Shown here: one piece after another, positions 21,575-53,080 of the stretch | Numbering within the stretch: the first letter of the stretch is position 1 | How the letters are laid out: every line of letters begins with the position of its first letter | Assembly: GCA_046542845.1 (NCBI GenBank) | Contig: JBKHAN010000001.1 | Span: 3,267 to 67,266, forward strand | Origin: Spirochaetaceae bacterium | Lineage (GTDB): Bacteria; Spirochaetota; Spirochaetia; DSM-27196; SKKC01 | DNA: 64,000 bases | Direction: 5' to 3' | Position numbers and translations under genes: made by a program | Notes under the pieces: model-generated | What the model was told of the DNA's origin: nothing | Seen by the model: only the letters and a program-made list of their open reading frames with translations | The model's database searches: none

Positions 21575-21575
21575 G

Positions 21576-22691: not shown

Positions 22692-22724
22692 CTGTCTGGT
22701 CTTGAACAGGTTAAATGCATACTC

Positions 22725-23618
22725 CTATCCCTTTACCGCACCACTGGCGAGACCAGAGACAAGCTGCCTGTTCAGTGCGATAAACAGCAGTGCGATCGGT
22801 ACAGCTATCAGCAGACCCCCTGCAGCAAACGCAGGCTGGTTAAGGGTTCGTTCGTCTGCTATGAGGGTGAACAGACCGGCAGCAAGCGTGTAGTCCTCTC
22901 TGCTCCTGAGCAATACCGCCGGGAGCAGGTAGTCCTGAAAGGGGCCAATAAAGGACCACAGACCAATAAGCGCGAGCATGGGTTTCGCAATGGGCATGAG
23001 GATGAGTTTGTATACTTTAATGTTGTTACACCCATCTATTCGGGCTGCGTCGTCGAGCTCAGTTGAGATGGAATCCAGATACATTTTCATTACAAAGGTA
23101 TTCATTGCGATTGCACCGCTGGAGTAAATAAAAACCAGCATCATCTGGCGACTAAACCACGGGGCAACCGATGCGACCACCGAATGAAGGGTAAAGAATA
23201 CCGGGATCGCGGTAAAGTTGGGGATGGTCTGTATGAGCATTACCGTCATGAGCGACTGCTTTCGACCGGTAAAACGGAACCTCGAAAACGCATAACTGGT
23301 CAACGAAGTGAAAATAACCGTAATAATCGCGGTCGCACCTGCAATGAACAAGGTATTCATAACCCAGCGTAAATACAGCGTCTCCTGAAAGAGGTGCTCA
23401 TAGTGACTGGTCGAAAAGATGAAATTATCGTTGGTCATGAGATAGGTGCTCTGCCGGCCGTTAAACGCCGATATTACCATCTGGAACAGCGGCCAGATTA
23501 TACCCCACGCCCAGGCGATGAGAACGACGTACATAAAAAGGACACCAATGAACCCTACCACCGTAAGCGGCTGCTTGTCGGAGAGATAAAGGTTTTCTTT
23601 TTTCCGAAAGACATTCAT
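22725..23618 (-). CDS. maltodextrin-type ABC permease (MalG-like)
   Basis: EAA loop LDDAARIDGCNNIKVYKLILMPIAKP. Its start shares 1 nt with the upstream stop (TAATG). Confidence 0.85.
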   Translation of the reverse strand: MNVFRKKENLYLSDKQPLTVVGFIGVLFMYVVLIAWAWGIIWPLFQMVISAFNGRQSTYLMTNDNFIFSTSHYEHLFQETLYLRWVMNTLFIAGATAIITVIFTSLTSYAFSRFRFTGRKQSLMTVMLIQTIPNFTAIPVFFTLHSVVASVAPWFSRQMMLVFIYSSGAIAMNTFVMKMYLDSISTELDDAARIDGCNNIKVYKLILMPIAKPMLALIGLWSFIGPFQDYLLPAVLLRSREDYTLAAGLFTLIADERTLNQPAFAAGGLLIAVPIALLFIALNRQLVSGLASGAVKG

Positions 23619-25714
23619 TACAGTCTCTCCTCTTTAAAGGCTTTGGAGTTTTTGAAGCCTAAGTACGCGAAGAACATCAGTCCAAGTGCCACTACGATCG
23701 AAATGGCAGCCCCTATCGACTGAAACTGATTCTGCATGACCAGCTTGAAGATGTAAGAAGCCAGGATGTCGGTGCCGCCCGCGAGGTTTCCATACACGCT
23801 GGGTCTGAATGGTCCTCCTTCGTTGAACAACCAGATAATGCTGAAGTTGTTGAAGTTAAACGTGTACTGCCCAACCAGCAACGGTGCCGTCTGAAAAAGC
23901 ACGATCGGTACGGTAATCCTGCGCAGCTTCTGCCACGCCGTCGCTCCGTCAATCTGGGCTGCCTCGTACAGATCGCCCGGAATAGCCTGGAGAACTCCAG
24001 TGAACAAAAGGAATATGTAAGAACTACCGAGCCAGGTCTGCAACAGTATAAGCGTGATACGCGATAGCAACACGTCAGTTCTGACGAGAATTCTTGTATT
24101 GAACGTGTTGCTCAGAATCTGTGTGAGGGCGCCTGTCGGGGAGAACATGATCGCAAAGAACATTATGGTAATGAACGCAGGAACCGCCCAGGGCAATATG
24201 TATATAGTGCGGAAGATGCCCTTGGCCTTTATACGATCGTGATTGACAAAGATAGCCAGAAAAAAGCCCACGACTATCGGCAGTGTAGACGATGCAATGG
24301 TCCAGACAACCGTCCACCCTAATACGAGCCAGAAAACCGACCCTGCAAGTCCCTGTCCAGTGACCAGCAAGGTGTAATTGTGAAACCCTACCCACGGGAA
24401 CTTTGACTGGGCATTGGGATCCATTCCGGTAAACGACAGCAGTATGGTCGTGGCAATTGGCACCATGACAATAAACATGATAATGAGCAGCGCAGGTGTG
24501 GACACCAGTATAGGAAAGCCCTCCTGCTCCAGAGTAGAAGTGGATTCAAACCAGTTTTTCTCCCGTATGCCCTTTATCATTCCTTTTTCGGTTAAGAACA
24601 CATCACGAAAACTGAAGAACAGAATGGCAAAGGCAATAACCAGAAGAAAAACGGCGATGACACCTTCGATCATGAAGATCAGAGATCGATCGATTCTGCG
24701 AGCGCCCTCCGCCAGGGTAATGAGTCCAGATATTCCCGTTCCCTGATAGTTTCCGTAACCAAGTGCGTACGGAATCGCGATTCCGTAGATAAACAAGGAC
24801 AGGACCGCAAAAATGCCCGCTTTGATGTGCTGACCATTCAGAGCCTGTCCAAGACCCGGAAGCAGCATTCCTGCAAACGCGTTACGGGGAGTCTGTTTTT
24901 CAATTTCAACCGGGGTGCTGCGACGGATATCGGAAATGCTCGAGTTCATGACCCATATTTTCCGTCGTGTGCCTACACGTAACTGATACTTCTTGGCTAC
25001 TGCAACTTCCCTGAGATCTTTCTCGTCAACCGCATACGACTTCAGAATGTTTGCTTCGAGCATTCGTTTCTTGAGTTCGACTATGCCACGACGCAGCGCT
25101 CGATCCGAAATGAGCCCATCACGTTTTTTTTGTCTTAGTTCTTTTTTTCGATCCTTGTACCGTTTATGCTCTTGTTTCTTTGCCTCCCGGAACTCATTTC
25201 TGGCTTTCTTCTGTTTCTTCCTGTCTATCGCGGAGAGATCCGACAAAACTCTGTTTCGTTCGTCCTGGGTCGTCTTGTAGTGCTGAATGATTCCTGGCAG
25301 GTGGTCGGAAACGGTGGTGTGTTCCTTATATGCCATTTCCGCGTCGTAGCATAATGCAGTGTACCGGCTGTAGAAAATCGCCTTCTTTTCGCTTTCGAAG
25401 AGGCGCTTGTAAAACCGCCGTATGCGAAAGCTGTTACCCCTGTCGATTTCCTGCATGTGCTTTTTCGTCGCCGGCCGAAGGTCTCTCAGGAACTGCTTTT
25501 CTTCTCGTTGGTAAGTTTCAAGCTCTTTATTATAGGGATGTGACCGCTTGCTTTTCTTTAGTTGTGTAATCTTCTGTCGTATTGCTGCAGCTGAGCCCGA
25601 ATCTGATTCGGACAGTTGCTGATACAGACTATACAACTCGTACAAGTATCGATTCTTCCGCTCGTAACGGCGCCCAATTTCATCGTAGAGGTAGATGCGG
25701 TCTTCTGGTTTCAA
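23618..25714 (-). CDS. maltodextrin-type ABC permease (MalF-like) with a ~280 aa K/R/E-rich N-terminal extension
   Basis: The C-terminal ~400 aa form a MalF-like permease (LYEAAQIDGATAWQKLRRITVPI). The first ~280 aa are highly charged, for example RKKQKKARNEFREAKKQEHKRYKDRKKELRQKKRD, with no TM segment. Confidence 0.8.
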   Translation of the reverse strand: MKPEDRIYLYDEIGRRYERKNRYLYELYSLYQQLSESDSGSAAAIRQKITQLKKSKRSHPYNKELETYQREEKQFLRDLRPATKKHMQEIDRGNSFRIRRFYKRLFESEKKAIFYSRYTALCYDAEMAYKEHTTVSDHLPGIIQHYKTTQDERNRVLSDLSAIDRKKQKKARNEFREAKKQEHKRYKDRKKELRQKKRDGLISDRALRRGIVELKKRMLEANILKSYAVDEKDLREVAVAKKYQLRVGTRRKIWVMNSSISDIRRSTPVEIEKQTPRNAFAGMLLPGLGQALNGQHIKAGIFAVLSLFIYGIAIPYALGYGNYQGTGISGLITLAEGARRIDRSLIFMIEGVIAVFLLVIAFAILFFSFRDVFLTEKGMIKGIREKNWFESTSTLEQEGFPILVSTPALLIIMFIVMVPIATTILLSFTGMDPNAQSKFPWVGFHNYTLLVTGQGLAGSVFWLVLGWTVVWTIASSTLPIVVGFFLAIFVNHDRIKAKGIFRTIYILPWAVPAFITIMFFAIMFSPTGALTQILSNTFNTRILVRTDVLLSRITLILLQTWLGSSYIFLLFTGVLQAIPGDLYEAAQIDGATAWQKLRRITVPIVLFQTAPLLVGQYTFNFNNFSIIWLFNEGGPFRPSVYGNLAGGTDILASYIFKLVMQNQFQSIGAAISIVVALGLMFFAYLGFKNSKAFKEERL

Positions 25715-25732
25715 AATTTTCCTGCCTTTCCT

Positions 25733-26176
25733 TTACTCACTGGTGCTTTCACGAATCACGAACATCAGTGACAGAATCGCAAGTAGCAGTATCCCGTGAA
25801 GCACGATATATGCTGGAAAGAAAAACGCTCGCATTTCCAGTCCAACAAGATTGTACGCCAGTCCGCCGGATATCAACACCGTCCACATGAACACGAAAAG
25901 CGCATTGATTCTCACAAACCTGTACGATGCATACGCGTACATCGCAAATGCTGCAGGAATCGTAATTCTCATAGCATACTGGCTAAGCCTGGCCGTAACG
26001 TACATGTCAAGACTGCCTCCATGCATTAATCCGTCAGCGGTGCCCATCCAGGACTCGAAAAAACGTACATCTCTTACATAAAACAAGACTTCAATAGAAT
26101 TCAGAAAAACAATACCGGCTGTGGTTACAAGAAAAACATAAAGATGCTTGAGCGGCAGCTTTGTGGTGGAGTTCAG
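25733..26176 (-). CDS. small 4-TM membrane protein inside the mal operon, probable non-ATG start
   Basis: Track ORF starts at TTG 26086, which has no SD. The frame is open upstream to 26197 and encodes another hydrophobic helix, HLYVFLVTTAGIVFL. CTG at 26176 sits 5 nt after AAGGGAGGA. Confidence 0.45.
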   Translation of the reverse strand: MNSTTKLPLKHLYVFLVTTAGIVFLNSIEVLFYVRDVRFFESWMGTADGLMHGGSLDMYVTARLSQYAMRITIPAAFAMYAYASYRFVRINALFVFMWTVLISGGLAYNLVGLEMRAFFFPAYIVLHGILLLAILSLMFVIRESTSE

Positions 26177-26220
26177 GCTGTCCTCCCTTCCGTTACGTCA
26201 ATACATGCCGTCGTTCCGAT

Positions 26221-26252
26221 AGCGAGAGAGAAGCCAAGGCTTCTCTCTCGCT
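26221..26252 (-). other. perfect 15-bp stem-loop immediately downstream of the SBP gene
   Basis: AGCGAGAGAGAAGCC-aa-GGCTTCTCTCTCGCT with no T-run. Probably an intercistronic mRNA-stabilising or partial termination element. Confidence 0.5.
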
Positions 26253-26265
26253 TATTGAAACAGTC

Positions 26266-27558
26266 TTACAGGTTGTCCATGAGAGCACGAAATGCAGACT
26301 GAACTTCCGAATAGGCAGCTTCTGCATTCTCAGGTCGAACCGAAGCCCAGGACAACAATCCGTTTTCCCAGGTCGACCATACCTGCCCCCATTCTGTGAA
26401 GAGCGGACGGGTCGGAGCCTCCTCGTAGGATTCAATTACGGCAGATATAACGGTTTTGTCGGCATCGCTCAGATCCGAGTTCAGGTAGACGGATGCCGGA
26501 ACATTTTCCATGATCTTTCCGGTATCGGTGAAGAATTCAACCGCGTACTCGGTGTTCAGCAGTTCTTCGATAAACGCGACAGCCAGATCAAACTGAGCAC
26601 CGGTCCCTTCGAGGCGAGCATTCACGCCTATGCCCCAGCCACCTCTCCAGTGGAGCAAGGGATTGCCGTTAAGGGTAACCTGGTTAATCGGCAGGATAGC
26701 AATGTTGTCTGTGCCTGCACGTTCTGTGAGAGCACCGGTCGACCACGGCCCCTCCAGTCGAAGCGCTGTCGCGCCACCCGGCTCAAATTCGCTGTCCATG
26801 TAGCCCCACGCCGAACTCGCGTCCCATAGTGGAGTCCCTGCAGCTTCGTGTGCCTCCCAGTACTCGTACAGGACGGTGAATGCATCGCGCTTCTCGGCAG
26901 GAAGGTCAGCCCAGTCGGCCGTCAGATCGGACGCAAACCCTGAGCCGTCCTGTTCAAGAAATTCGATATCTGCCGAGTTTGTTAACGCCACACCGAACCA
27001 TGCGTTGAACACGGGCACCAGCATCGCATCATACGCAATATTGGAAAATTCTATGGTGGAAGCGATGTCTATGCCGGCAGCGTCGGCGTTCTCGGTGTTG
27101 ACGAAGTTTATGAGCGTTTCGATGTTCATCGGGAAGGCGAAATAATCGCCATCGATATTGAACGCTCCACCCAACCCCGCATCATAGTCGGCAAACCCGC
27201 CGACCCGTTCTGCCATTGCAGGGCCGTCGATCGGCGCCAGCGCATCGTTGTTCACAAGACCGTAGATACGGTCAGCCGGCAGTGCAAAGACGTCGGCAAC
27301 ATCGGAGTTACCCGCACCGGTCGAATCGAGAACATCGAGCATGTCAAACGATCCCGACTCGATAATCTCGATCTCTGCACCCGGGTTTGCTTCCTGCACG
27401 CGAGCTGCAGCAGCTTCGTAATACGGAATCCAGTCAGTCTCTGCCTGCACAGTAATGCGCGCATCCATTTCCGCTACTTCATCTTCACCACATGCGGTGA
27501 GAAAAACGAGCGAAAAGGCAGCCGCGAGTATCAGTGCCAGGCGTATTATACGATTCAT
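26266..27558 (-). CDS. maltose/maltodextrin-binding lipoprotein (MalE-like SBP)
   Basis: Lipoprotein signal MNRIIRLALILAAAFSLVFLTAC. SBP family 1 size. First gene of the operon. Confidence 0.8.
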   Translation of the reverse strand: MNRIIRLALILAAAFSLVFLTACGEDEVAEMDARITVQAETDWIPYYEAAAARVQEANPGAEIEIIESGSFDMLDVLDSTGAGNSDVADVFALPADRIYGLVNNDALAPIDGPAMAERVGGFADYDAGLGGAFNIDGDYFAFPMNIETLINFVNTENADAAGIDIASTIEFSNIAYDAMLVPVFNAWFGVALTNSADIEFLEQDGSGFASDLTADWADLPAEKRDAFTVLYEYWEAHEAAGTPLWDASSAWGYMDSEFEPGGATALRLEGPWSTGALTERAGTDNIAILPINQVTLNGNPLLHWRGGWGIGVNARLEGTGAQFDLAVAFIEELLNTEYAVEFFTDTGKIMENVPASVYLNSDLSDADKTVISAVIESYEEAPTRPLFTEWGQVWSTWENGLLSWASVRPENAEAAYSEVQSAFRALMDNL

Positions 27559-35349: not shown

Positions 35350-36525
35350 TCAGCCGAGATCGATCACCTGTATCACAGCGCGCTTTCCGTTGATTCGCCA
35401 ACTTTGGTCTTCGGCGTCAAGTGCTGACACTGTTTCCTGATCGAGCCCCCATATAACATCGCTTTTCATACCGCGCAGAAGGATCATCGGTGGCAGCCCG
35501 CTCGTGCCAACCGCCGCGCGAACGTCCGTGCCAATCGGCCAGATCGTGTCCTGAAACACGCGGCGGTAGTTCAGGTCTCCTTTTACGATAAGAAGGTCCG
35601 CCGTCTCGAGCACGCGGCGCATCCGCAGCGGGAGGTCGGGGAAAAACAGCGTCGAACACCAGTACGGATCGGGCTGCAGGTGTATACGCTCATCATCAAA
35701 GCCTGTCTGTATATCCCTCGCGATTGCACGAACGGCGTCCGACCCGGCCGAACCGGCGCGTTCGAGAAAATAGTGCACATCGCGTACCGTGGTATCGCTT
35801 ACATAGGTAGGATGGTACTTCACATGACACACAACATCCGCCCCCGACAGCAGAAGCTCCCGAATCAGTAACAGGTCACCCGCAAGTTCTGCGCCCGCGT
35901 TGTCGGTCACGATGTGTACGCGTCTCGCTGTTCTCAGCAGCTTGAGCGCTTCAGTCTCGTCGTGTACCACCAGCAGATCTGCGGTTCCATGGCCGCGCTC
36001 GGGAGACGTCCCTGCAGAGAAGCTCAGGTCGGCACGGTTTCCCCATGTGGCAAACTCCATGGCCCGAAGCAACCTTGCCCCCGGATCATTGTCAGGGGTC
36101 TCCGCACTGCTGAAAAGCCGTACCGGCGCGAAAGCGTGCGCATTGTCCAGATCCGCCTTTTTTGTGTACCAGAACGGATCGCGTCCATGCTCGAAGAAAC
36201 GAGACGCGTCCAGTATGAGTCTGAAGGCGTAGGTTTCCGCGAAGAACCACGGTGCGTCGTGCCAGTGTTCATCGCGGTGCGGTTCAAATTGCCTCATCCA
36301 CCATTCGTAGTCGTACCATGTGGCGCCCGGTTCAGGTATACGCGAGCCGACTTCGATTGCTTCGGCGAGTTCCAGAAGGCGGGCACGCTCAGGATCGGTA
36401 AAGTCGGGGTTCGTGCGCGCGGTGTAGCGTATATTCCCGGGAAGGCGTTTCTGCATGGTGTTCCACGCGAACCAGTTGCCTTCGTTCGTACGTATCGGGT
36501 CGATTGACCCGGATGCGGGTGTCAT
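35350..36525 (-). CDS. DUF89 / ARMT1-like damage-control phosphatase family protein
   Basis: VTDNAGAELAGDLLL (DNxGxE metal site) and KGDLNYRRV, both DUF89 hallmarks. Confidence 0.7.
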   Translation of the reverse strand: MTPASGSIDPIRTNEGNWFAWNTMQKRLPGNIRYTARTNPDFTDPERARLLELAEAIEVGSRIPEPGATWYDYEWWMRQFEPHRDEHWHDAPWFFAETYAFRLILDASRFFEHGRDPFWYTKKADLDNAHAFAPVRLFSSAETPDNDPGARLLRAMEFATWGNRADLSFSAGTSPERGHGTADLLVVHDETEALKLLRTARRVHIVTDNAGAELAGDLLLIRELLLSGADVVCHVKYHPTYVSDTTVRDVHYFLERAGSAGSDAVRAIARDIQTGFDDERIHLQPDPYWCSTLFFPDLPLRMRRVLETADLLIVKGDLNYRRVFQDTIWPIGTDVRAAVGTSGLPPMILLRGMKSDVIWGLDQETVSALDAEDQSWRINGKRAVIQVIDLG

Positions 36526-36558: not shown

Positions 36559-37455
36559 TCAGTGGCGTTCGATAAACCGTCGGCGCGTTTTCTCCGTAAG
36601 CCCGTTGACCGGTACGTGTATGGCGATCTCGAACGCCCGGCCGAAATCCTCGTCGAACGCGATGTCGAACACCTCAAGCCGGGGACAGGCTTTCAGATAC
36701 GAGACAAGTATTGCGGGAATCTGCCACCCGTCGCGCGACGCACACCCGGTCAATGCTTCAAGCGTTGCCGTACACTCAGGGTCGGCGTGGTCTGCTGCGT
36801 CAAGCATTTCCTTCACGACGGCGCGGTCTCTCGCGCACACATCGCCCGATGCCGCCCGGTAGTGCGTATCGAGAAAGGTCCACAGGGTTCGAATCGCGGA
36901 CGATGGCATGGTCGGGTAGACGGTGACGTTGCCAAAATACCCGGTCATGTCGGGCCAGATGCGGGTCAGAGCGCCGAGCCCCGACCAGACCGAAAACAGC
37001 CCCTGCACCGCGCGATGCGCGCGGCGGTTTACGACCGACCGCCCGAGTTCGACAAGGTGCGGGAGCGTGCCGTTCACAAAGGCACGGGAAAAATCGAACA
37101 GACCGGCAGTGCGAAGACTCACAGCGGACAGTTGGTGCGATTCAAGCATGCGGCCGCAGTGCATCGCGCGGTACATGGCCACGAGCTCCCCGTGCTCGCG
37201 GTCGAAGGATACGATCTGCAGATAGCGAGGGATACCGGTATCGTGTCTGTCGAGGTCGCGGGGCAGGTTTCGGCCGGCACCTTCCGCCCGGTACTCGGCT
37301 TCCCTGATCCGTCCGATCTCGTTAAGGACCTCCGGACAGTCCGGACCGTCAAAGATGTGTATTTCCAGATCGTGAAACCTCGTCAACTCAGTATCGCTAC
37401 CCAGCTCGCGTCGCAACTGCTCCGGGTCACTTGGTGGCGCGACCGTCTCTATCAT
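36559..37455 (-). CDS. GNAT-fold N-acyltransferase, OlsB/GlsB (hemolysin-like, COG3176) type
   Basis: IREAEYRAEGAGRNLPRDLDRHDT...LQIVSFDREHGELVAMYR fits the Acetyltransf_5 pattern. Length of about 300 aa matches OlsB. ATGA overlap with the upstream gene. Confidence 0.5.
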   Translation of the reverse strand: MIETVAPPSDPEQLRRELGSDTELTRFHDLEIHIFDGPDCPEVLNEIGRIREAEYRAEGAGRNLPRDLDRHDTGIPRYLQIVSFDREHGELVAMYRAMHCGRMLESHQLSAVSLRTAGLFDFSRAFVNGTLPHLVELGRSVVNRRAHRAVQGLFSVWSGLGALTRIWPDMTGYFGNVTVYPTMPSSAIRTLWTFLDTHYRAASGDVCARDRAVVKEMLDAADHADPECTATLEALTGCASRDGWQIPAILVSYLKACPRLEVFDIAFDEDFGRAFEIAIHVPVNGLTEKTRRRFIERH

Positions 37456-39065
37456 GAATCACGCCCCCCCTGTATCACGATACGGCTGGATGATGTACGC
37501 ACAGCCAGTGTTCGCTCCACGAGGTCCTGAAACCTTCGTGCGGTGAGCGCGTCCTCGGCCGCGCCGGGGTCGGAAGCGGGCACAGGGTGTCCGGGTGCGC
37601 CAAAAACCAGATCCACGGTATCGCCGCGGCGTCCGAAAAGCTCTCGTACAAGGAGAAACATTTCGATATTGGGCACGCTCTGAAAGCGCTTTCGCAGCGT
37701 ATACATTCCGTTAAACAGCCATGAATTACGTCCGGAGACCCAGACCGGGAGGACACGACGCCCGTAGCGCCGGGCGCGTGTCACAAAAGACTTCTGCCAG
37801 GGAAACTCTCGAAGACGCCCGCCTTCAACGCGGGCGGTACGCCCGGCGGGAAAAATCAGAACCGGCCGGTGACCCTTATACAGCTCATCGTAACGGGATA
37901 GAACCGACGCGTTTCCACGGTAGCGGTCAATCGGGACGATCAGCGACGCGAGCGATGGAATGCGTGCGAGCATTTCGTTCGCCGGTACCGCGACGTCGCC
38001 GTACATCCGGAGAAGCTCGCGCATGAGCACGAGCCCCTCGACTCCACCGGACGGATGATTGGACGCGACAACGGGACGGTCCGTCTCGACGAGATGATGT
38101 CTGCCGTGAACGCTGACCGAAATTTCGAGTTCCTCAAGCACAGCGTCACAGAATTCGAGCGCGCTTGCGTCAGCGTACCGCAGGACCAGCCGGTTGACGC
38201 GCTTTTCGCAAAGCAGCCACCGGAGAAACGCGAACCCGAATCCGGGCACCCGCATTGCCATTCCCGGAGCGCGCTCCAGGAAAGCCTGACGGCAATCGAG
38301 GGGTTTCTCCGACACGAGTCCCTGCGGGCGCAGCGTCGCAAGCGCCGGCGGATCAGGCAGACTGCACGGGGGTCCGTCGAAATACCCGATATGTACTGAT
38401 CGATCCGCGCTGTATACCACCCGGGTACAGCTGACCGTCCGTGCGTCGGCGCGCGACATGCAGACACCGAAAGCCGCATCCCCCGGGTTTACACGGCGAT
38501 GAAATTTCCAGAGCTTTTGCCCGTGCGGAGCATCTGTCGGCCCCACGATGCGGTGATACTCCGCACTGCGCCAGTCTTCCACATCGTTCGACCGGTAGCT
38601 TGAAGTCGTGAGCGGAGGTCGAAGCGCGTCCTCCCGAACGAGCTTTCGCCCGGTCCAGGTGAACGAAGCCGTGCGCAGCGGCAACCCGGAACCACCAGGG
38701 AAAAACCCGGCGAGAATAAACGGGGGATAGTCCTCAAGTTCAAGCGCCGACAGGAGGGCGTGCGTATGATCGGGATCAGTCGAAGACTGAACCCGTCGGA
38801 CGATTTCACCACGGCTTCGGGCGGAACCCGAGGCCGGCCCGAGTCCATGCCGGTAGGAGTTCAGAATACAGTGTGTTACGCCGTATTCGTTTACGCCTAA
38901 CCAGGTACCCCCACGGTCCCGGTCCGTCGGAGCTGCGTAGCGAACACCGTCCGTGAGCGCCGTCTCCGGTGCGAGCGCACGGCGTCGCGTTCGAAGCTCA
39001 TCCCGGTTAAAGAGGAGTTCATACCCCCCGCTGCCGGAACCCGTGGTCCAGGTAAGCGTGCACAC
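37452..39065 (-). CDS. fusion protein: N-terminal NRDE (TANGO2) domain plus C-terminal PlsC-superfamily acyltransferase domain
   Basis: Starts MCTLTWTT...LLFNRDELRTRR, with Cys2 and a literal NRDE motif. The C-terminal half carries VVASNHPSGGVEGLVL and VLIFPAGRTARV acyltransferase blocks. Confidence 0.6.
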   Translation of the reverse strand: MCTLTWTTGSGSGGYELLFNRDELRTRRRALAPETALTDGVRYAAPTDRDRGGTWLGVNEYGVTHCILNSYRHGLGPASGSARSRGEIVRRVQSSTDPDHTHALLSALELEDYPPFILAGFFPGGSGLPLRTASFTWTGRKLVREDALRPPLTTSSYRSNDVEDWRSAEYHRIVGPTDAPHGQKLWKFHRRVNPGDAAFGVCMSRADARTVSCTRVVYSADRSVHIGYFDGPPCSLPDPPALATLRPQGLVSEKPLDCRQAFLERAPGMAMRVPGFGFAFLRWLLCEKRVNRLVLRYADASALEFCDAVLEELEISVSVHGRHHLVETDRPVVASNHPSGGVEGLVLMRELLRMYGDVAVPANEMLARIPSLASLIVPIDRYRGNASVLSRYDELYKGHRPVLIFPAGRTARVEGGRLREFPWQKSFVTRARRYGRRVLPVWVSGRNSWLFNGMYTLRKRFQSVPNIEMFLLVRELFGRRGDTVDLVFGAPGHPVPASDPGAAEDALTARRFQDLVERTLAVRTSSSRIVIQGGRDS

Positions 39066-39071
39066 GGAGGT

Positions 39072-39581
39072 CTATCTGCTCCCCGCCTCGAAGCGCAGTG
39101 TCGAGAAGGCTACACCGAAATCCTGTGGTACCGGAGAATCCATGGAGCTAAGAATGAAGGAAATAAGCGCCATGTGATGCACCGTATGCGAGGACAGAAA
39201 GTGGAGCTCCCGGCCTGGACTCGTTTCCATGTCGCACGCTCCGGTGCCCCAGGTATACCTGACACTGCCGACGGATATGGGACTGCCGTAGTCCGATAAT
39301 ATCGAACACACCCGCGAGCACGCGTCGGCCGCTACAATGGGATCGGTTTCCAGATCGAGATCCCGCACTCGTGACTCGTAGTCGACTGCCGCATCGGTAG
39401 ATTCAAGACATGCGGTGTAGTGGTCAAGCACGTGCCTGACATGCTTTCCTATTCCGCCCCGCTCAAACGGCTGTCGGGCATACTGGTACTGCTCCGGCGT
39501 AAGCGTGTTCAGCAACGCTCGAAGCTGTTCGAGCAGATCGACGTTTTCACGACGCAGGGCAATCAGACATTCGGTACTCAT
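39072..39581 (-). CDS. DinB-fold (DinB_2-like) metal-binding protein
   Basis: His triad context IGKHVRHVLDHY ... SSHTVHHMALI. The ATG at 39581 (MSTECL) is preferred over the track start at 39809, which runs into the coaBC promoter. Confidence 0.5.
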   Translation of the reverse strand: MSTECLIALRRENVDLLEQLRALLNTLTPEQYQYARQPFERGGIGKHVRHVLDHYTACLESTDAAVDYESRVRDLDLETDPIVAADACSRVCSILSDYGSPISVGSVRYTWGTGACDMETSPGRELHFLSSHTVHHMALISFILSSMDSPVPQDFGVAFSTLRFEAGSR

Positions 39582-39690
39582 AGCGTCTACCTTACCACCT
39601 GGATTCACGCTTTGCAATCTTTTTGTATCTACATTTATTGTAGTACGTAATTTTTTTGTAGTGACAGACTGCGCTGTGTACGTATACGGT

Positions 39691-40953
39691 ATGTTCGATA
39701 TGGAAATCAGACGCGACAGCATTACCGGAAGTGACAGCTCGATACTCACAGGCAGAACCATTATTCTGGCGCTGTGCGGAAGCGTCGCAATCCTCCGATC
39801 GATAGACATTGCGCGAGCCCTTATGCGTCACGGCGCGACCGTCGTTCCCGTTATGTCGGCTTCCGCGACCCGGCTCGTCGGACCCGATCTTGTACACTGG
39901 GCAACGGGGGTACCGCCGATAACCGGACTCACCGGCGCAAACGAACACGTCGCTCTCGCCGGAAACGAAGGTACACCGGCAGACCTCTTACTTGTTGCCC
40001 CCGCAACCGCGAACACAGTCGGCAAGATCGTTCACGGGATAGACGACACGCCGGTCACAACCGTCGCGGCGACTGCCCTCGGGCAGGGGCTGCCGATTCT
40101 TCTCGCACCCGCAATGCACGAGCCCATGTACACGAATCCGGCGATACAGCGAAACCTCGAGACCGCACGTTCACTGGGAATCGGAGTGGTAGAGTCCAAG
40201 GTTGTCGAAGGCAAAGCTAAAATGGCGGATGTGCAGCACATTGTGGACGCAAGTATCCGCGCCATCCGGTCGCGCACGTCCGCGTTTGCAGGACGAACGG
40301 TCCTGGTGACCGCAGGGAGAACGGTGGAATATCTTGATCCGGTCCGTGTCGTTACCAATAATTCCAGCGGTAAAATGGGGGTGGCGCTCGCCCGGGCGGC
40401 GTATCATGAGGGCGCGAACGTCACGCTGGTATACGGCAAAGGCACTGCGGTCCCCCCGGAGGGCGTTCGCGTTGTCCAGGTGGAAACAGCGGAACAGATG
40501 CTTCGTGAAGTGCTCGAGTGTCTCAGCCAGGACAGACCGTTGGTGGACGTAATGATTGCTGCGGCAGCCGTCGGTGACTGGAAGGCCCGCCACCCGGCCG
40601 CGAAAAAGACGGCCACACACGGAGTCGAGGAATTACAGGTCGATCTTCTTCCAACACCCAAAATTATTGATGAAGTTCGCCGACAGAACCCGAACCTCCG
40701 TCTTGTGGCGTTTCGTGCCCAACACGATCTTGAGCACTCCGAACTCATGAGAGACGGCCGGGCGAGGATGGAACGAGCAGGGGCCGATATGATCGCCATA
40801 AATGATGTTTCGAAACCCGGTCGGGGATTTGAGTCGGAAACAAACGAAATGACGCTCCTGTTTCCCGATGGAACTGAGGTCCTCGTTCCGATGGCGGATA
40901 AATACGCTGTTGCACGGCGAATCCTGGACGTTATTGCGACACGGATTCTGTAA
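39691..40953 (+). CDS. coaBC: bifunctional phosphopantothenoylcysteine decarboxylase / phosphopantothenate-cysteine ligase
   Basis: Flavoprotein half: ILALCGSVAILRSIDIARAL, PATANTVGKIVHGIDDTPV. CoaB half: VTAGRTVEYLDPVRVVTNNSSGKMG. The track start at 39505 is over-extended. Confidence 0.9.
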   Translation: MFDMEIRRDSITGSDSSILTGRTIILALCGSVAILRSIDIARALMRHGATVVPVMSASATRLVGPDLVHWATGVPPITGLTGANEHVALAGNEGTPADLLLVAPATANTVGKIVHGIDDTPVTTVAATALGQGLPILLAPAMHEPMYTNPAIQRNLETARSLGIGVVESKVVEGKAKMADVQHIVDASIRAIRSRTSAFAGRTVLVTAGRTVEYLDPVRVVTNNSSGKMGVALARAAYHEGANVTLVYGKGTAVPPEGVRVVQVETAEQMLREVLECLSQDRPLVDVMIAAAAVGDWKARHPAAKKTATHGVEELQVDLLPTPKIIDEVRRQNPNLRLVAFRAQHDLEHSELMRDGRARMERAGADMIAINDVSKPGRGFESETNEMTLLFPDGTEVLVPMADKYAVARRILDVIATRIL

Positions 40954-40975: not shown

Positions 40976-41857
40976 TCAGGGCTCGTTCAGGTTCCAGTCG
41001 TAGGAATACGCGATTCGTCCGCGATATCCTCCATCGGCGAAGGAGCGCAGCTGCTCCGCCAGACTGTCCTCTGCGTACTCGAGCAGGTGACCGACAATGA
41101 CCGCAATGTCGTCGTCCCAGTCCTCCGAGTACCAGTTGAAGATCTCCGACAAGTGCAGTCGGTTCCCCTCGAAACGGGCTCCCCTCGGGTGGTTTATATA
41201 CTCTCCGGCGGCTATATCGAACAGATCCCGGTAATTTGCTCCGGTAAACGGCTCCGGTTGCAGGTTCGGGCAGCCTATGCTCGCACAGTTTACTGCGTAG
41301 TGGATTCGCGGGTCCTGCCATATCGGCCGTATAATCCGGTGTTCAATATCGTTGAGCGTCAGATCCTCTCCTTCAACCTCAACGAGCACTGCATCCCAGG
41401 GATGCCGGTTGAACGCGGAACCCGATATGGTAATGTCGCGAATGCTGTCGACCGGATAATGTTCGAGTATGAGTTCCACCGTCACCGCGTTGTACAGATT
41501 CAACCAGTACGCAATCTGCTCGTCACGGTTGAGACGTGAAACCTCCACCTCGGACAGCCGATCAATGTACGCCTGAAGCGCTGAGCGATCCGTATCGCTC
41601 ACATCGGCATAGCGAAAGAGGTTCACTCCGGATTCTGTTCCAGTGACCAGATAACGGTCGATAATCCGCCCCCACTCCGAGTGGTCTATAATTGTGGTGC
41701 TCTGTGCATCGTGCGCTTCCCACCGTGGCCAGAGCTCTGCCTGTGGCGCAGCGGCGACGCCCTGAACAGTACATACCGATGCCAGGAACACAAACAGTAG
41801 AAGCGGTACCGAATGACCGACCGCTCGTATTGATGAGGCGCGGAACATTAAATGCAT
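40976..41857 (-). CDS. DUF547 domain protein, secreted
   Basis: Signal peptide, then QIAYWLNLYNAVTVELILEHYPVDSIRDI and DPRIHYAVNCASIGCPNL, typical of DUF547. Confidence 0.75.
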   Translation of the reverse strand: MHLMFRASSIRAVGHSVPLLLFVFLASVCTVQGVAAAPQAELWPRWEAHDAQSTTIIDHSEWGRIIDRYLVTGTESGVNLFRYADVSDTDRSALQAYIDRLSEVEVSRLNRDEQIAYWLNLYNAVTVELILEHYPVDSIRDITISGSAFNRHPWDAVLVEVEGEDLTLNDIEHRIIRPIWQDPRIHYAVNCASIGCPNLQPEPFTGANYRDLFDIAAGEYINHPRGARFEGNRLHLSEIFNWYSEDWDDDIAVIVGHLLEYAEDSLAEQLRSFADGGYRGRIAYSYDWNLNEP

Positions 41858-41890
41858 TGGCTTTCTCCTTTCAGGGTGGACAACTCCGCT

Positions 41891-41929
41891 ATACTTATAG
41901 TATTGATGATACTATCATTTGTATCTACA
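41891..41929. promoter_or_regulatory. AT-rich repeat cluster in the DUF547 / reductase divergent promoter region
   Basis: ATACT-tat-AGTAT, then ATAGTAT-tgatg-ATACTAT (7-5-7 inverted repeat), then TTTGTATCTACA. The same 12-mer occurs at 39622..39633. Confidence 0.4.
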
Positions 41930-41956
41930 AATTACAACGGAGCGGGAGATATCTTC

Positions 41957-43420
41957 ATGAAATATACACACGATATCCTGGTTATAGGGGGTGGCTCCGG
42001 TGGCCTTTCCGTTGCCTCAGGATGTGGGCAGCTCGGAATGAAAACGGCCCTGATCGAACGCGAGCATATGGGAGGCGACTGTCTGCATTTCGGTTGTGTG
42101 CCAAGTAAGGCTCTCCTGCACGCTGCCGAACGCTTCTCCGGTTATCGTGATGCACGATCGTTTGCCTCGGATACGGTGCCCGACATCAACGCGGACATCG
42201 GCAAGGTGAACGCCTTTATTGCATCGGTCATTCAATCGATTATGTATCACGACTCCCCGGAACGCTTTCGATCCCTTGGCGTCGACGTCCATCTGCGCAC
42301 CGGTCGGTTCCGGTCACCTCACGAGGTATCGATCGGGGAAACCGTTCTATCGGCTCCGAAGATCGTCATTTCCACGGGCAGCCGGGCTGCGGTCCCACCG
42401 GTGCCGGGACTTGCAGACACACCATTCCTGACGAATCGTGACGTATTCTCGCTTCGCTCGCTTCCAGAGTCCATGACTGTTCTCGGCGGCGGTCCCATAG
42501 GGATCGAACTGAGTCAGGCCTTTGCCCACCTGGGTTGTTCGGTGACCATCGTAGAAATGGCGCCTCGGATCCTTCCGCGTGATGACGAAGAACTCGCATC
42601 CATTATCGCACACAGACTCGCGTCGGACGGAATTACCGTCCTTACCGGAACGAAAGCGTCGTCTGTTGCCTACGACGCACGCAACGGCTTTGTCGTAGGC
42701 ATAGAGGGTGACGGTCAGACGCGAAGCATACAATCCGAGGCGCTTCTCGTGGCTGCCGGGCGTCAGGCGAATACGGACGATCTCGGTCTCGAAGCAGCCG
42801 GCATCGAAGCCGGTCCGGGTGGATTCATTGCCGTCGATTCCCGCCTCCGGACCCGGCAGAAGCACATCTACGCGATCGGGGACGTAAACGGATCGTTCCC
42901 GTTTACGCATGTGGCAGGAGCAGAGGCGGCTGTCGTCGTGCGACGCGTTGCGCTGCACGCCGGCGGTACCATCGACTACCGAACCGTACCCTGGGTAACC
43001 TATACAGACCCTGAACTCGCGGCAGTCGGCTATACCGAAGCTGCCGCGGAGGCGGAGAATATCCCGCATACCGTTGTGCGTCAGTCCTTCAGGAGCGTGG
43101 ACCGTGCCCAGGCGGAAGAGGCGGCAGACGGCCTGCTGAAGATTGTCCTCGACAAGCGCGATCGTGTGATCGGCGTCCAGGTCGCAGCGAAGGGAGCCGG
43201 GGAACTGCTCTCCCCGGGCCTTACCGCCGTCCGCCGTAGGGCCCGATTCGCGTCGCTACGATCCGGGATGATTCCCTACCCGACTATGACCGAGGTGTAT
43301 CCCCGCGCTGTCTCGTCGATGCTCGCTCCGAAACTGTTCAATCCGACGATCCGGTCTATCCTTCGACTCCTGTTTCGCTACCGGGGTACAGGACCGGTAC
43401 CCCAGGGGGATAACCAATGA
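41957..43420 (+). CDS. class I pyridine nucleotide-disulfide oxidoreductase (dihydrolipoamide dehydrogenase / mercuric reductase-like)
   Basis: ILVIGGGSGG FAD site, redox-active GGDCLHFGCVPSK, second Rossmann motif VLGGGPIGIE, C-terminal dimerisation PYPTMTE. Start MKYTHD at 41957. Confidence 0.85.
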   Translation: MKYTHDILVIGGGSGGLSVASGCGQLGMKTALIEREHMGGDCLHFGCVPSKALLHAAERFSGYRDARSFASDTVPDINADIGKVNAFIASVIQSIMYHDSPERFRSLGVDVHLRTGRFRSPHEVSIGETVLSAPKIVISTGSRAAVPPVPGLADTPFLTNRDVFSLRSLPESMTVLGGGPIGIELSQAFAHLGCSVTIVEMAPRILPRDDEELASIIAHRLASDGITVLTGTKASSVAYDARNGFVVGIEGDGQTRSIQSEALLVAAGRQANTDDLGLEAAGIEAGPGGFIAVDSRLRTRQKHIYAIGDVNGSFPFTHVAGAEAAVVVRRVALHAGGTIDYRTVPWVTYTDPELAAVGYTEAAAEAENIPHTVVRQSFRSVDRAQAEEAADGLLKIVLDKRDRVIGVQVAAKGAGELLSPGLTAVRRRARFASLRSGMIPYPTMTEVYPRAVSSMLAPKLFNPTIRSILRLLFRYRGTGPVPQGDNQ

Positions 43421-44148
43421 AACGCGTCAGGACGATGCTGAAACTGCTCGCCGCGGTGCTTCTGCTCACGACGATTCTGATCGCGGCGGTCGTTCTGGAC
43501 GCCGGGACGTATCTTCGGAACGCTCTGAACTGGATCGATTCGATAGGGTTCTGGGGCCCCTTCGTGTACAGCGGTCTCTATATCGCGGTGTGCGTCTTTC
43601 TGATACCGGGATCAATCCTGACGCTCGGGGCAGGCGCGGTCTTCGGGCTGATTCGTGGGACACTGTATACGTCGGTGGCAGCGACACTCGGCGCGACTGT
43701 CGCGTTTATTCTCGGGCGGACGCTGTTGCGGGACTGGGTTTCCCGCACCATCGAGAAGAGGCCGACACTCAGAGCGGTCGACCGTGCGGTAGAAAAAGAA
43801 GGCGGGCGGGTCGTATTTCTCCTGCGACTGTCTCCGCTGATCCCCTTCAGCATTTCCAACTACGTCTACGGACTCACGAGGGTGTCGCTTGGAGCCTATG
43901 TACTCGCTTCCTTCGTCGGGATGCTTCCTGGTGTTTTCGTGTATACATATATTGGAAGCCTCGCGCGGCGCATAGCGGAGCTCGGAACCGGAGGGTCGGG
44001 CACATCGGCTCTCGAATGGGCGCTGTACGTGCTCGGGCTCATTGCCACCGTGTACGCAACCTACCGGATCACGATCGTGGCTCGACGCGCGTTGTCCGAG
44101 ACGGTCGATCCCGCAGAAGATTCAGACGCCGTCGTGGCCGAACCGTGA
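43417..44148 (+). CDS. TVP38/TMEM64 (DedA-related) family membrane protein
   Basis: ATGA overlap with the reductase gene. IPGSILTLGAGAVFG ... LRLSPLIPFSISNYVYGLT. Confidence 0.8.
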   Translation: MKRVRTMLKLLAAVLLLTTILIAAVVLDAGTYLRNALNWIDSIGFWGPFVYSGLYIAVCVFLIPGSILTLGAGAVFGLIRGTLYTSVAATLGATVAFILGRTLLRDWVSRTIEKRPTLRAVDRAVEKEGGRVVFLLRLSPLIPFSISNYVYGLTRVSLGAYVLASFVGMLPGVFVYTYIGSLARRIAELGTGGSGTSALEWALYVLGLIATVYATYRITIVARRALSETVDPAEDSDAVVAEP

Positions 44149-51829: not shown

Positions 51830-53080
51830 ATGAAGATCCTCCACACTGCCGACTGGCACATCGGACGGACATTGTACGGAAAGAAACGCTACGACGAAAC
51901 GTCCGCCTTCCTCGACTGGCTCGTCAACACGATACGCGATCGTCGCGTCGACGTACTGCTTGTAGCAGGCGACGTATTCGATACGACGACCCCGAGCAAT
52001 CGTGCACAGGCGCTGTATTACGAAACGCTTCCGCGAGTGGCTGAGGCCGGCTGTCGGCACGTCGTGGTGACCGCCGGGAATCACGACTCGCCATCGTTTC
52101 TCACCGCTCCCCGTGACCTGCTGAAAGCGTTGAATGTTCACGTTGTCGGAAGTGCTTCAACCGATCCCGCCGACGAGGTAATCGTGCTTTCGGATACGGC
52201 GGGGCACGCAGAGCTTATTGTCTGCGCAGTTCCCTACCTTCGTGACCGCGATATCCGGGTGGTCGAGGCGGGTGAACGTATAGAAGACAAGGAACACAAA
52301 CTCCTCGCGGGCATCCGTGAGCACTACGCGCTGGTGGGTGCATACGCGGAACAGGTTCGCGAGCGCCTCGCCCGTCCGGTACCTGTCGTCGGGATGGGGC
52401 ACCTCTTTACCGCCGGCGGTCAGACGGTTACCGGAGATGGGGTTCGTGAGCTGTACGTGGGCTCCCTTGCTCACGTTACATCGTCGGTCTTCCCTGCGTG
52501 CTTCTCCTACACGGCCCTCGGTCACCTCCACGTTCCCCAGACAGTCGGCGGCAGCGACGTGATACGCTACAGCGGGTCTCCCATACCCATGGGGTTCGGC
52601 GAAGCAGGGCAGACAAAGACGGTATGCCTTATTGAGTACGAACCGGATGCGGGGACCGACGAAGCTGCATCACCGACGGTACACAGCGTCAATATCCCGG
52701 TCTTCCAGGCGATTGCAGAGATCACCGGCGACTGGAAGCACATATCACAGCGAATAGATGAGTACCGCCGACAGGGTACCGCCGTGTGGCTTGAGATTAC
52801 CTACGAGGGAACGGAGATTACCGGGGACCTTCGCGATCGACTCGAGCAGGCGATCGCAGGGACGCGGCTTGAGATACTGCGGGTGAGAAACACCAGAATT
52901 ACAGACCGCGTCCTCGGCGCAATGCGCGAAGACGAACACCTCGAAGAGCTTGACCTCTACGACGTCTTCGAGCGCTGCATGGCAGTACACGGTGTACCCG
53001 AGGATCAGCAGGTAGAGCTTCGTAGCGTCTACCGGACCGCTGTTCGGTCTCTCGACGAACTGGACGCACGAGCGGAATGA
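51830..53080 (+). CDS. sbcD: exonuclease SbcCD, nuclease subunit D
   Basis: MKILHTADWHIGR, LLVAGDVFD, TAGNHDS, LGHLH. Confidence 0.9.
   Translation: MKILHTADWHIGRTLYGKKRYDETSAFLDWLVNTIRDRRVDVLLVAGDVFDTTTPSNRAQALYYETLPRVAEAGCRHVVVTAGNHDSPSFLTAPRDLLKALNVHVVGSASTDPADEVIVLSDTAGHAELIVCAVPYLRDRDIRVVEAGERIEDKEHKLLAGIREHYALVGAYAEQVRERLARPVPVVGMGHLFTAGGQTVTGDGVRELYVGSLAHVTSSVFPACFSYTALGHLHVPQTVGGSDVIRYSGSPIPMGFGEAGQTKTVCLIEYEPDAGTDEAASPTVHSVNIPVFQAIAEITGDWKHISQRIDEYRRQGTAVWLEITYEGTEITGDLRDRLEQAIAGTRLEILRVRNTRITDRVLGAMREDEHLEELDLYDVFERCMAVHGVPEDQQVELRSVYRTAVRSLDELDARAE

Follow-up and report, generated by a model that had tools for sequence, protein, structure and literature searches.

Why should a protein of the TANGO2 family, whose function is disputed and has been described as that of a heme chaperone, an acyl-CoA binder or a cysteine N-terminal nucleophile (Cys-Ntn) hydrolase (PMC11867700, PMC13044924, PMC12782551, PMC10470608), be joined to a lipid acyltransferase in a spirochaete? 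The question is raised by a gene in a 64,000-nucleotide (nt) stretch from a Spirochaetaceae bacterium (assembly GCA_046542845.1, contig JBKHAN010000001.1, positions 3,267 to 67,266), referred to as the window, in which a single open reading frame (ORF) encodes an N-terminal NRDE/TANGO2 domain and a C-terminal acyltransferase. Both domains, the pathway and the automatic label "NRDE family protein" are already known; new are the domain architecture and a previously undescribed conserved accessory module of aminolipid synthesis, to which the fusion belongs. The coordinates of all features are collected in Table 1.

A genuine two-domain protein

The ORF of 537 amino acids (aa) starting with MCTLTW, as described in an initial annotation that left the strand unstated, is borne out and lies on the minus strand. 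It contains no in-frame start between the upstream stop and its GTG, and the frame reads GTG-TGC, which places Met-Cys at the true N terminus. An AlphaFold2 model of the full-length protein, based on a 104-sequence alignment, is confident (predicted local distance difference test, pLDDT, 90.9; predicted template-modelling score, pTM, 0.73) and displays, from the N to the C terminus, a β-sandwich (residues 1-232), a linker (233-257), a helical segment of amphipathic helices (258-312), an α/β acyltransferase core with the catalytic part at 316-490, and a long C-terminal helix (502-532). The fold comparison of each half, suggested together with the initial annotation, returns TANGO2 as the best match for the N-terminal half and PlsC/GPAT enzymes for the C-terminal half. 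The ORF encodes a genuine two-domain protein, and the identities of both domains are established by profiles and by the confident model. A database entry from a Spirochaetaceae metagenome-assembled genome (MAG), named "NRDE family protein" by NCBI, is identical to it.

In the N-terminal half, the Pfam family PF05742 (TANGO2) matches residues 1-118 (E 6.1e-10, 40.1 bits against a cut-off of 22.6), covering only model positions 1-121 of 257. A profile built from 64 sequences of this domain finds TANGO2 in the PDB (E 8e-9), and the four best Foldseek matches in the PDB are human TANGO2 chains (8sv7, 9bwa) with an E-value of 1e-8 and template-modelling (TM) scores of 0.57-0.61 on the target, followed by bile-salt hydrolases (BSH), penicillin V acylase and the NRDE protein CV2077 (TM 0.62). 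Residues 1-232 are modelled with pLDDT above 90 and adopt the αββα arrangement of Ntn-type folds. The NRDE/TANGO2-like nature of this half has thus withstood comparison by Pfam, profile and fold, any of which could have contradicted it, and the NRDE motif is present, although at residues 20-23 and not at 21-24, where it had been placed by an error of one residue.

Cys2, Arg21, Asp22, Arg27, Asn69 and Arg85 of the fusion align with TANGO2 Cys2, Arg26, Asp27, Arg32, Asn75 and Arg88, of which Cys2, Arg26, Asp27 and Asn75 were proposed as catalytic and Arg32 and Arg88 as anion-binding residues in the TANGO2 crystal paper (PMC13044924). Alignments of 57-64 members of the NRDE subfamily show no variation at R21, D22, E23, R27, P46, D48, G53, W55, R85, S155, R166 and R205, while C2, N69, S84 and G86 are kept in at least 90% of the members. 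Human TANGO2 (8sv7, 9bwa) and CV2077 (3gvz) have in common with the window protein a Met-Cys start, an NRDE motif and the aligned residues. Both are single-domain proteins; identity is about 16%, the sequence alignment is limited to the N-terminal ~120 residues, and the invariant S155, R166 and R205 are peculiar to the window subfamily. When human TANGO2 was aligned to the subfamily profile with hmmalign, using a sequence whose residues 18-130 were checked against the TANGO2 profile match, only residues ~18-130 were aligned and the region of Asn157/Lys166 fell outside; S155 and R166 are candidate counterparts of these two further members of the TANGO2 catalytic set by position only.

In the C-terminal half, PF19576 (Acyltransf_2) matches residues 263-491 (E 4.7e-40, 137.6 bits against a Pfam cut-off of 27) and PF01553 reaches 31 bits against a cut-off of 23. 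Foldseek matches the GPAT structures 1k30 and 1iuq and the PlsC structure 5kym. Against the NCBIfam model of the lyso-glycine-lipid O-acyltransferase GlsA (NF053697), this half reaches 171.6 bits where the cut-off is 260, and against the N-terminal half of OlsF it reaches 124 bits, far below the OlsF cut-off of 620. Because the GlsA score lies under the equivalog cut-off, the domain is regarded as a homologue, and substrate equivalence with GlsA is not claimed. The C-terminal half belongs to the GlsA/OlsF type of aminolipid acyltransferases and is not a generic PlsC; the superfamily had been named correctly, as PF01553 and the PlsC/GPAT fold confirm, but the assignment is refined by PF19576.

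Its two sequence blocks, NHPSGGVEG at residues 336-344 and FPAGRTAR at residues 405-412, were found as first reported. The former reads H-x5-E and does not conform to the H-x4-D of canonical PlsC and lysophospholipid acyltransferases (LPLATs). This spacing had been singled out as unusual, but H-x5-[DE], in the form NHPxGxx[DE][GA], is common to all ~120 OlsF/GlsA-type homologues examined; the idea of a peculiarity of the fusion was therefore dropped, and the H-x5-acid block is a signature of PF19576 and not a defect. The acid is Glu in the Spirochaete clade, a conservative variation. The third block, FPAGRTAR in the fusion and FPAGEVSR in OlsF, marks out the GlsA-like branch, and H337, F405-R412 and other residues are invariant.

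An aminolipid operon with two additional parts

The fusion gene is the middle gene of a compact three-gene operon on the minus strand, preceded by a DinB-like gene and followed by a GlsB-like gene, to which it is translationally coupled, as deduced from the overlap between its stop and the start of the GlsB-like gene. The GlsB-like protein matches the NCBIfam model GlsB (NF053696) over nearly its full length (positions 3-302 of 303) with 155.2 bits, below the cut-off of 300, and the C-terminal half of OlsF matches it with 117 bits. Since both the GlsA and the GlsB scores are below their equivalog cut-offs, the head group of the product cannot be called glycine. Acyloxyacyl aminolipids are made by a two-step route that employs GlsB and GlsA, OlsB and OlsA, or OlsF (PMC12971839). 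Because this route is established, the window operon is classified, by homology, as a cluster for the synthesis of such amino-acid lipids with two extra parts, the NRDE domain and the DinB-like protein.

The glycine-lipid system GlsB/GlsA of Bacteroides likewise consists of two separate acyltransferase genes that are homologous to the two halves of OlsF, and GlsA and GlsB are the best NCBIfam matches, over the full length, for both acyltransferase proteins of the window; the glsA-glsB loci of Bacteroidota differ in being devoid of an NRDE or DinB gene. OlsF, the bifunctional ornithine-lipid synthase of the Serratia/Flavobacterium type, shares the PF19576 domain, the NHPxGxx[DE] and FPAG blocks, the logic of the pathway and the organization as a fusion protein. 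However, OlsF unites the O-acyltransferase with a GNAT N-acyltransferase, whereas in the window the N-acyltransferase is separate and the fusion partner is an N-terminal NRDE/TANGO2 domain.

The DinB-like protein produces only weak matches to the Pfam families DinB and DinB_2, with scores below the cut-offs. Its AlphaFold2 model is confident (pLDDT 94.9) and shows a four-helix bundle with the His metal triad typical of this fold, H50/H132/H136, which is invariant. Foldseek retrieves DinB/YfiT proteins, mycothiol S-transferase and the N-terminal domain of EgtB with TM scores of ~0.6, although the E-values are weak, the best being 9.8e-3 and none reaching 1e-3. Among 53 homologues of 163-221 aa, H50, H132, H135, H136, R49, R71, R73, E78, R124 and E125 are invariant. 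The ORF can be over-extended to 245 aa (window 39582-39809), as in entry P0181, while the homologues have ~169 aa.

Recurrence of the fusion

The search for the same architecture, proposed with the initial annotation, yielded 18 protein clusters with the full-length arrangement, the cluster of the window protein among them. When the GTDB species, each represented by one genome, were scanned with the full-length fusion alignment as query, it was found in 24 species genomes from three phyla: 8 Spirochaetota, mostly soda-lake MAGs, 14 Gammaproteobacteria and 2 Balneolales. The gammaproteobacterial carriers belong to Alkalimonas (4), Arsukibacterium (3) and Natronospirillum (2), with one each in Alishewanella agri, Bacterioplanes, Saccharospirillum, Salinispirillum marinum and Aliidiomarina. 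Conservation extends over the domain junction, and the linker differs in length among the homologues with the reading frame unbroken in all of them. Entries P0008 and P0009 are annotated without their first ~27 residues, with the GTG start missed, and the upstream DNA reads VCTVSW...NRDE (locus L002, 5926-6000).

A DinB-like gene lies directly upstream of the NRDE frame in 22 of the 24 fused loci, and a GlsB-like gene adjoins the fusion in nearly all loci, wherever sequence is available. In ~55 unfused GlsA-like/GlsB-like loci from other Spirochaetes and Bacteroidota, neither NRDE nor DinB was found within 7 kb, which indicates that the NRDE-DinB pair is an add-on module. The fused form is rare within the large NRDE family: a family profile search of 1.84 billion representatives gave 3000 matches at E < 1e-30, the best 150 of which are all standalone proteins of 236-304 aa, with nearly all of these 150 matching from residue 1 onwards. 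In 37 related loci the NRDE domain is always N-terminal and its ORF begins with the start codon followed directly by Cys, exactly as an N-terminal nucleophile requires.

In neighbour-joining trees of both domains, calculated without support values, the fused proteins fall into the same two separate clades, one of Spirochaetes and one of Gammaproteobacteria plus Balneolales. A standalone NRDE gene from a Spirochaete MAG (locus L006; GCA_007120265.1, SKOC01000366.1, 2676-3992) nests inside the fused Spirochaete clade. This locus keeps the CoaBC-DinB-NRDE synteny; its NRDE protein has 251 aa and is 46-48% identical to the window N-domain, and no acyltransferase gene lies downstream on the 5.4-kb contig. 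Its position suggests a secondary fission or loss. The trees are compatible with two independent fusions and one fission, a scenario that is not claimed.

According to the record titles of loci L011-L057, the fusion is carried almost exclusively by organisms of soda lakes and other saline, alkaline environments, such as the MAGs from Cock Soda Lake, Bitter-1 and a Cariboo lake, and Alkalimonas, Arsukibacterium, Natronospirillum and Cyclonatronaceae. This distribution may reflect adaptation to high pH, or horizontal transfer in a shared habitat combined with sampling bias; sampling around a soda-lake query may inflate the share of haloalkaliphiles.

Standalone NRDE genes accompany aminolipid genes

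The linkage between the NRDE domain, the DinB-like protein and aminolipid synthesis is not confined to the fusion but is general across many taxa. All seven standalone NRDE genes that were looked up singly come after a DinB-like gene of ~170-196 aa, and several of them are followed by OlsB/OlsA-like genes, by an OlsF-like gene, or by a gene for an 850-aa α/β-hydrolase and a VTT(DedA) domain. For a broader sample, metagenome contigs were scanned by the NRDE motif alone with an 18-sequence alignment, and the best 80 loci, relatives with 33-41% identity to the query N-domain, were reduced to 66 clusters at 90% identity. In 38 of the 47 non-redundant metagenome loci with enough sequence, the standalone NRDE gene is directly preceded by a DinB-like gene. 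The stop of the DinB-like gene overlaps the NRDE start by 13 nt in ~20 of the 37 related loci mentioned above.

Among the 22 metagenome loci in which NRDE is flanked by 3 kb or more in either direction, OlsB/OlsA-like or OlsF-like genes are present on the same strand within 4.5 kb of NRDE in 18, the hydrolase-VTT gene in 13, and any of these genes in 20. By a rough estimate that assumes ~1 such cluster per genome, a random 9-kb segment would contain one in well under 1% of cases. The recurring gene orders are DinB-NRDE-OlsB-OlsA, DinB-NRDE-OlsF, OlsB-OlsA-DinB-NRDE-hydrolaseVTT and DinB-NRDE-hydrolaseVTT-OlsF. The commonest neighbour of NRDE is an O-acylating enzyme, either the GlsA-like domain of the fusion, OlsF with its N-terminal O-acyltransferase half, or, as a candidate, the α/β-hydrolase. 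The conserved hydrolase-VTT protein of ~850 aa is encoded directly after DinB-NRDE in these 13 of 22 loci (L009 1076-3640; L091 5727-8282; L093 5784-8339; many of L095-L174) and may be a further O-acyltransferase or a flippase. OlsI, an unrelated α/β-hydrolase, serves as the O-acyltransferase of the third ornithine-lipid pathway (PMC12493201).

Proposed role of the NRDE domain

What would an NRDE domain contribute to such a pathway? With moderate confidence, it is proposed to handle acyl thioesters or to act as a donor for O-acylation within the aminolipid operon, possibly via S-acyl-Cys2. GlsB and OlsB make an N-(3-hydroxyacyl) amino acid, to which the second chain is then esterified by GlsA, by OlsA or by the N-terminal domain of OlsF; by homology, the GlsB-like enzyme would N-acylate an amino acid with a 3-hydroxy fatty acid to a lyso-lipid, and the C-terminal domain of the fusion would esterify a second fatty acid onto the hydroxyl of this lyso-lipid. 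Cys2, exposed after removal of the initiator Met, is the candidate nucleophile. The NRDE domain would bind an acyl thioester (acyl-CoA or acyl-ACP), probably take the acyl group onto Cys2, and pass it on or edit it for the adjacent O-acyltransferase. The DinB-like partner, as a His-triad metal protein of a thiol-activating family, would probably service the thiol/thioester chemistry. The closest functional analogy is offered by Aas of Escherichia coli, the 2-acyl-GPE acyltransferase/acyl-ACP synthetase, in which a lyso-lipid acyltransferase of the PlsC superfamily is likewise fused to a domain that prepares the donor; in Aas, however, the donor is prepared by an adenylate-forming synthetase that has no relation to NRDE, and a lysophospholipid serves as acceptor.

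A service to O-acylation is suggested by the position of NRDE, which is fused to, or most often adjoins, an O-acylating enzyme, by its necessarily N-terminal placement, which fits a free Cys α-amine, and by the human homologue. In human TANGO2 the NRDE pocket is the binding site for acyl-CoA, and when the protein is lost, lyso-lipids are no longer re-acylated and lysophospholipids rise (PMC11867700, PMC10042531), while its crystal structures suggest a Cys-Ntn hydrolase on fatty-acyl derivatives that operates upstream of LPLATs (PMC13044924, PMC12359130). The initial annotation had supposed that both halves act on one acyl or lyso-lipid substrate; this idea is strengthened by the operon context and is still an inference.

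Several observations weigh against a donor role. Direct use of acyl-ACP is the generally accepted view for OlsB and OlsA. Acyl-CoA is brought in by way of human TANGO2, with the low identity given above, and the C-terminal half of the NRDE domain does not align with TANGO2 by sequence. Moreover, GlsB and GlsA alone yield glycine lipid in E. coli, as summarized in a review (PMC12971839), and the closely related unfused GlsA/GlsB loci of Spirochaetes and Bacteroidota contain no NRDE or DinB within 7 kb. The NRDE module is thus accessory and dispensable for the core chemistry, and its role would be modulatory or condition-specific.

Alternative functions

An accessory position is also what would be expected of an editing enzyme, and the NRDE domain could instead be an active Cys-Ntn amidase or transamidase that attacks the N-acyl amide of the lyso-aminolipid or of the mature lipid in proofreading, turnover or head-group exchange, similar to BSH. 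This is the main rival, a tentative alternative that is considered somewhat unlikely. Next after TANGO2 in fold come Cys-Ntn enzymes that cleave amides, namely BSH and penicillin V acylase; the aligned catalytic set Cys2, Arg21, Asp22 and Asn69 is conserved, and the predicted product of the operon holds an N-acyl-amino-acid amide, exactly the type of bond on which BSH-type enzymes act. Glycine and taurine N-acyl amides are not only cleaved but also re-formed by BSH. An amine N-acyltransferase activity of BSH is cited in the TANGO2 crystal study (PMC13044924). On the other hand, a degradative amidase that is tethered to and coupled with biosynthetic enzymes would create a futile cycle unless it acted as a transferase. 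Moreover, NRDE is fused to, and preferentially adjoins, an O-acyltransferase and not the N-acyltransferase that makes the amide, and in this subfamily Ser may take the place of Asn as the candidate oxyanion residue. The Cys-Ntn amidases of lipid-like amides, namely bile-salt hydrolase/transferase, penicillin V acylase, acid ceramidase and NAAA, have no detectable sequence similarity to the NRDE domain and are standalone or self-processed proteins; none of them is known to be fused to a PlsC-type acyltransferase.

Donor handling by the NRDE domain also has to be weighed against a separate function of the DinB-like/NRDE pair, which could catalyse another type of reaction on the lipid or on its head group, such as a modification that depends on a thiol, with the fusion reflecting no more than membership in the same pathway. 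No gene accompanies NRDE more constantly than the DinB-like one (38/47 loci, often with the 13-nt overlap), the genes downstream of NRDE vary, and the DinB-like fold matches thiol-transferases and the N-terminal domain of EgtB. Ergothioneine synthesis provides a parallel, in which EgtB carries a DinB domain and EgtC is a Cys-Ntn amidohydrolase. Yet the DinB-like protein lacks the extra domains that make EgtB active, no recurring sulfur-metabolism genes were found in the loci examined, and no aminolipid modification known to the recent review requires such chemistry (PMC12971839), which renders this explanation doubtful.

That the NRDE domain serves heme binding or trafficking, as reported for HtpA of Shewanella, is very improbable. 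Bacterial TANGO2 homologues were reported to aid cytochrome c maturation (PMC10470608), and the human protein was reported to bind heme in vitro; however, heme binding by TANGO2 was non-specific in the crystal study (PMC13044924), its heme role is contested (PMC12782551), and HtpA may belong to another NRDE subfamily. In ~100 loci, no genes for heme or cytochrome maturation adjoin NRDE, and its neighbours are lipid acyltransferases. Finally, close relatives do carry both halves unfused, but an ordinary phospholipid PlsC in the C-terminal half, or two genes joined by a sequencing or assembly frameshift, has next to no probability left, because the C-terminal half scores best on GlsA/OlsF models and is coupled to a GlsB-like gene, the linker is conserved and the two-domain model confident, and the frameshift or misassembly, which had been named as a possible flaw, is ruled out by a continuous frame common to 24 independent genomes and 18 protein clusters, with conservation across the junction.

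Implications for TANGO2 and for aminolipid synthesis

A literature search of the searchable library found no paper that links TANGO2/NRDE to aminolipid genes, acyltransferase fusions or DinB, no relevant analysis of NRDE gene neighbourhoods, and none on the polar lipids of Alkalimonas, Arsukibacterium or Alishewanella. A 2026 review of aminolipids mentions neither NRDE, nor a DinB-like plus NRDE module, nor such a fusion (PMC12971839). For bacterial lipid biology, the conserved DinB-like plus NRDE module is an addition to aminolipid clusters of all acyltransferase types seen.

In humans, deficiency of TANGO2 causes a lethal metabolic disease. The fusion of a TANGO2-family domain to a lyso-lipid acyltransferase provides independent comparative evidence for an acyl-lipid role of the TANGO2 family, as does the ~80-90% co-location of standalone NRDE genes with lipid genes. 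Because the subfamily is distant, any transfer to human TANGO2 is suggestive only. A far-reaching interpretation, regarded as speculative and rather unlikely, holds that NRDE/TANGO2 proteins and the DinB-like partner are dedicated acyl-donor or editing enzymes that serve lyso-lipid O-acyltransferases via S-acyl-Cys2, that the bacterial fusion and operons represent the ancestral form of a partnership whose loss makes lysophospholipids accumulate in human TANGO2 deficiency, and that a so far unrecognised fourth and fifth component would thereby be added to bacterial aminolipid synthesis. If a dedicated acyl donor is indeed at work, the bacterial fusion and operons would offer an experimentally tractable form of that partnership. 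Cultured carriers such as Alkalimonas amylolytica, Alishewanella agri, Salinispirillum marinum and Arsukibacterium ikkense could serve as simple test beds.

Neighbouring genes and other features of the window

Table 1. Position of the fusion gene, its parts and the adjoining genes in the window
Feature	Position	Strand	Description
Fusion ORF	37452..39065	minus	537 aa, GTG start; NRDE/TANGO2 domain, linker, GlsA/OlsF-type O-acyltransferase (predicted)
NRDE/TANGO2 domain (Cys-Ntn-hydrolase fold)	38370..39065	minus	residues 1-232
Cys2 codon	39060-39062	minus	in fusion ORF
NRDE motif	38997-39008	minus	residues 20-23 of fusion
Inter-domain linker PCSLPDPPALATLRPQGLVSEKPLD	38295..38369	minus	residues 233-257; pLDDT falls to 68-77
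Acyltransferase region	37455..38294	minus	residues 258-537
H-block NHPSGGVEG	38034-38060	minus	residues 336-344
FPAGRTAR block	37830-37853	minus	residues 405-412
DinB/YfiT-like gene	39072..39581	minus	169 aa; directly upstream, stop 6 nt before fusion GTG
GlsB/OlsB-like N-acyltransferase gene	36559..37455	minus	298 aa; PF13444; ATG overlaps fusion TGA (ATGA)
ARMT1/DUF89 damage-control-phosphatase-like gene	35350..36525	minus	PF01937, E 1.3e-44; 33 nt downstream of GlsB-like gene
CoaBC (phosphopantothenoylcysteine synthetase/decarboxylase) gene	39691..40953 (start approximate)	plus	PF04127 and PF02441; divergent

Two genes that flank the operon, CoaBC and DUF89, were considered as parts of the system and dropped, since their synteny is mainly a matter of the Spirochaete clade and both are absent from the gammaproteobacterial loci. 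CoaBC keeps its divergent position in L004, L006 and L011-L013, and DUF89 its position in L004, L005 and L011-L013; their proximity may represent lineage synteny. CoaBC also adjoins some standalone NRDE genes in a few metagenome loci, e.g. L123. PANK4 carries a DUF89 domain as well. Judging from the title of a preprint, a CoA precursor rescues the defects of TANGO2 deficiency (10.1101/2022.11.04.514597).

A DUF547 gene is located two genes from the cluster (window 40976-41857, minus strand), and in L002 and L014 a DUF547 gene (L002 4910-5860) sits between the GlsB-like gene and the fusion. On the plus strand, window 41852-44148 encodes a pyridine-nucleotide-disulfide oxidoreductase (522 aa) followed by a small VTT/DedA protein (243 aa), a pair that is also found in L004 and is probably unrelated to the operon. 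Further away, a region of low GC content (0.48-0.50; window 19841-27558) contains an ordinary operon for an alpha-amylase and a maltodextrin-type ABC transporter, and a strong AT-skew peak at 54-56 kb (window 53077-56325) lies inside a gene for a 1082-aa SbcC/Rad50-like protein that looks ordinary.

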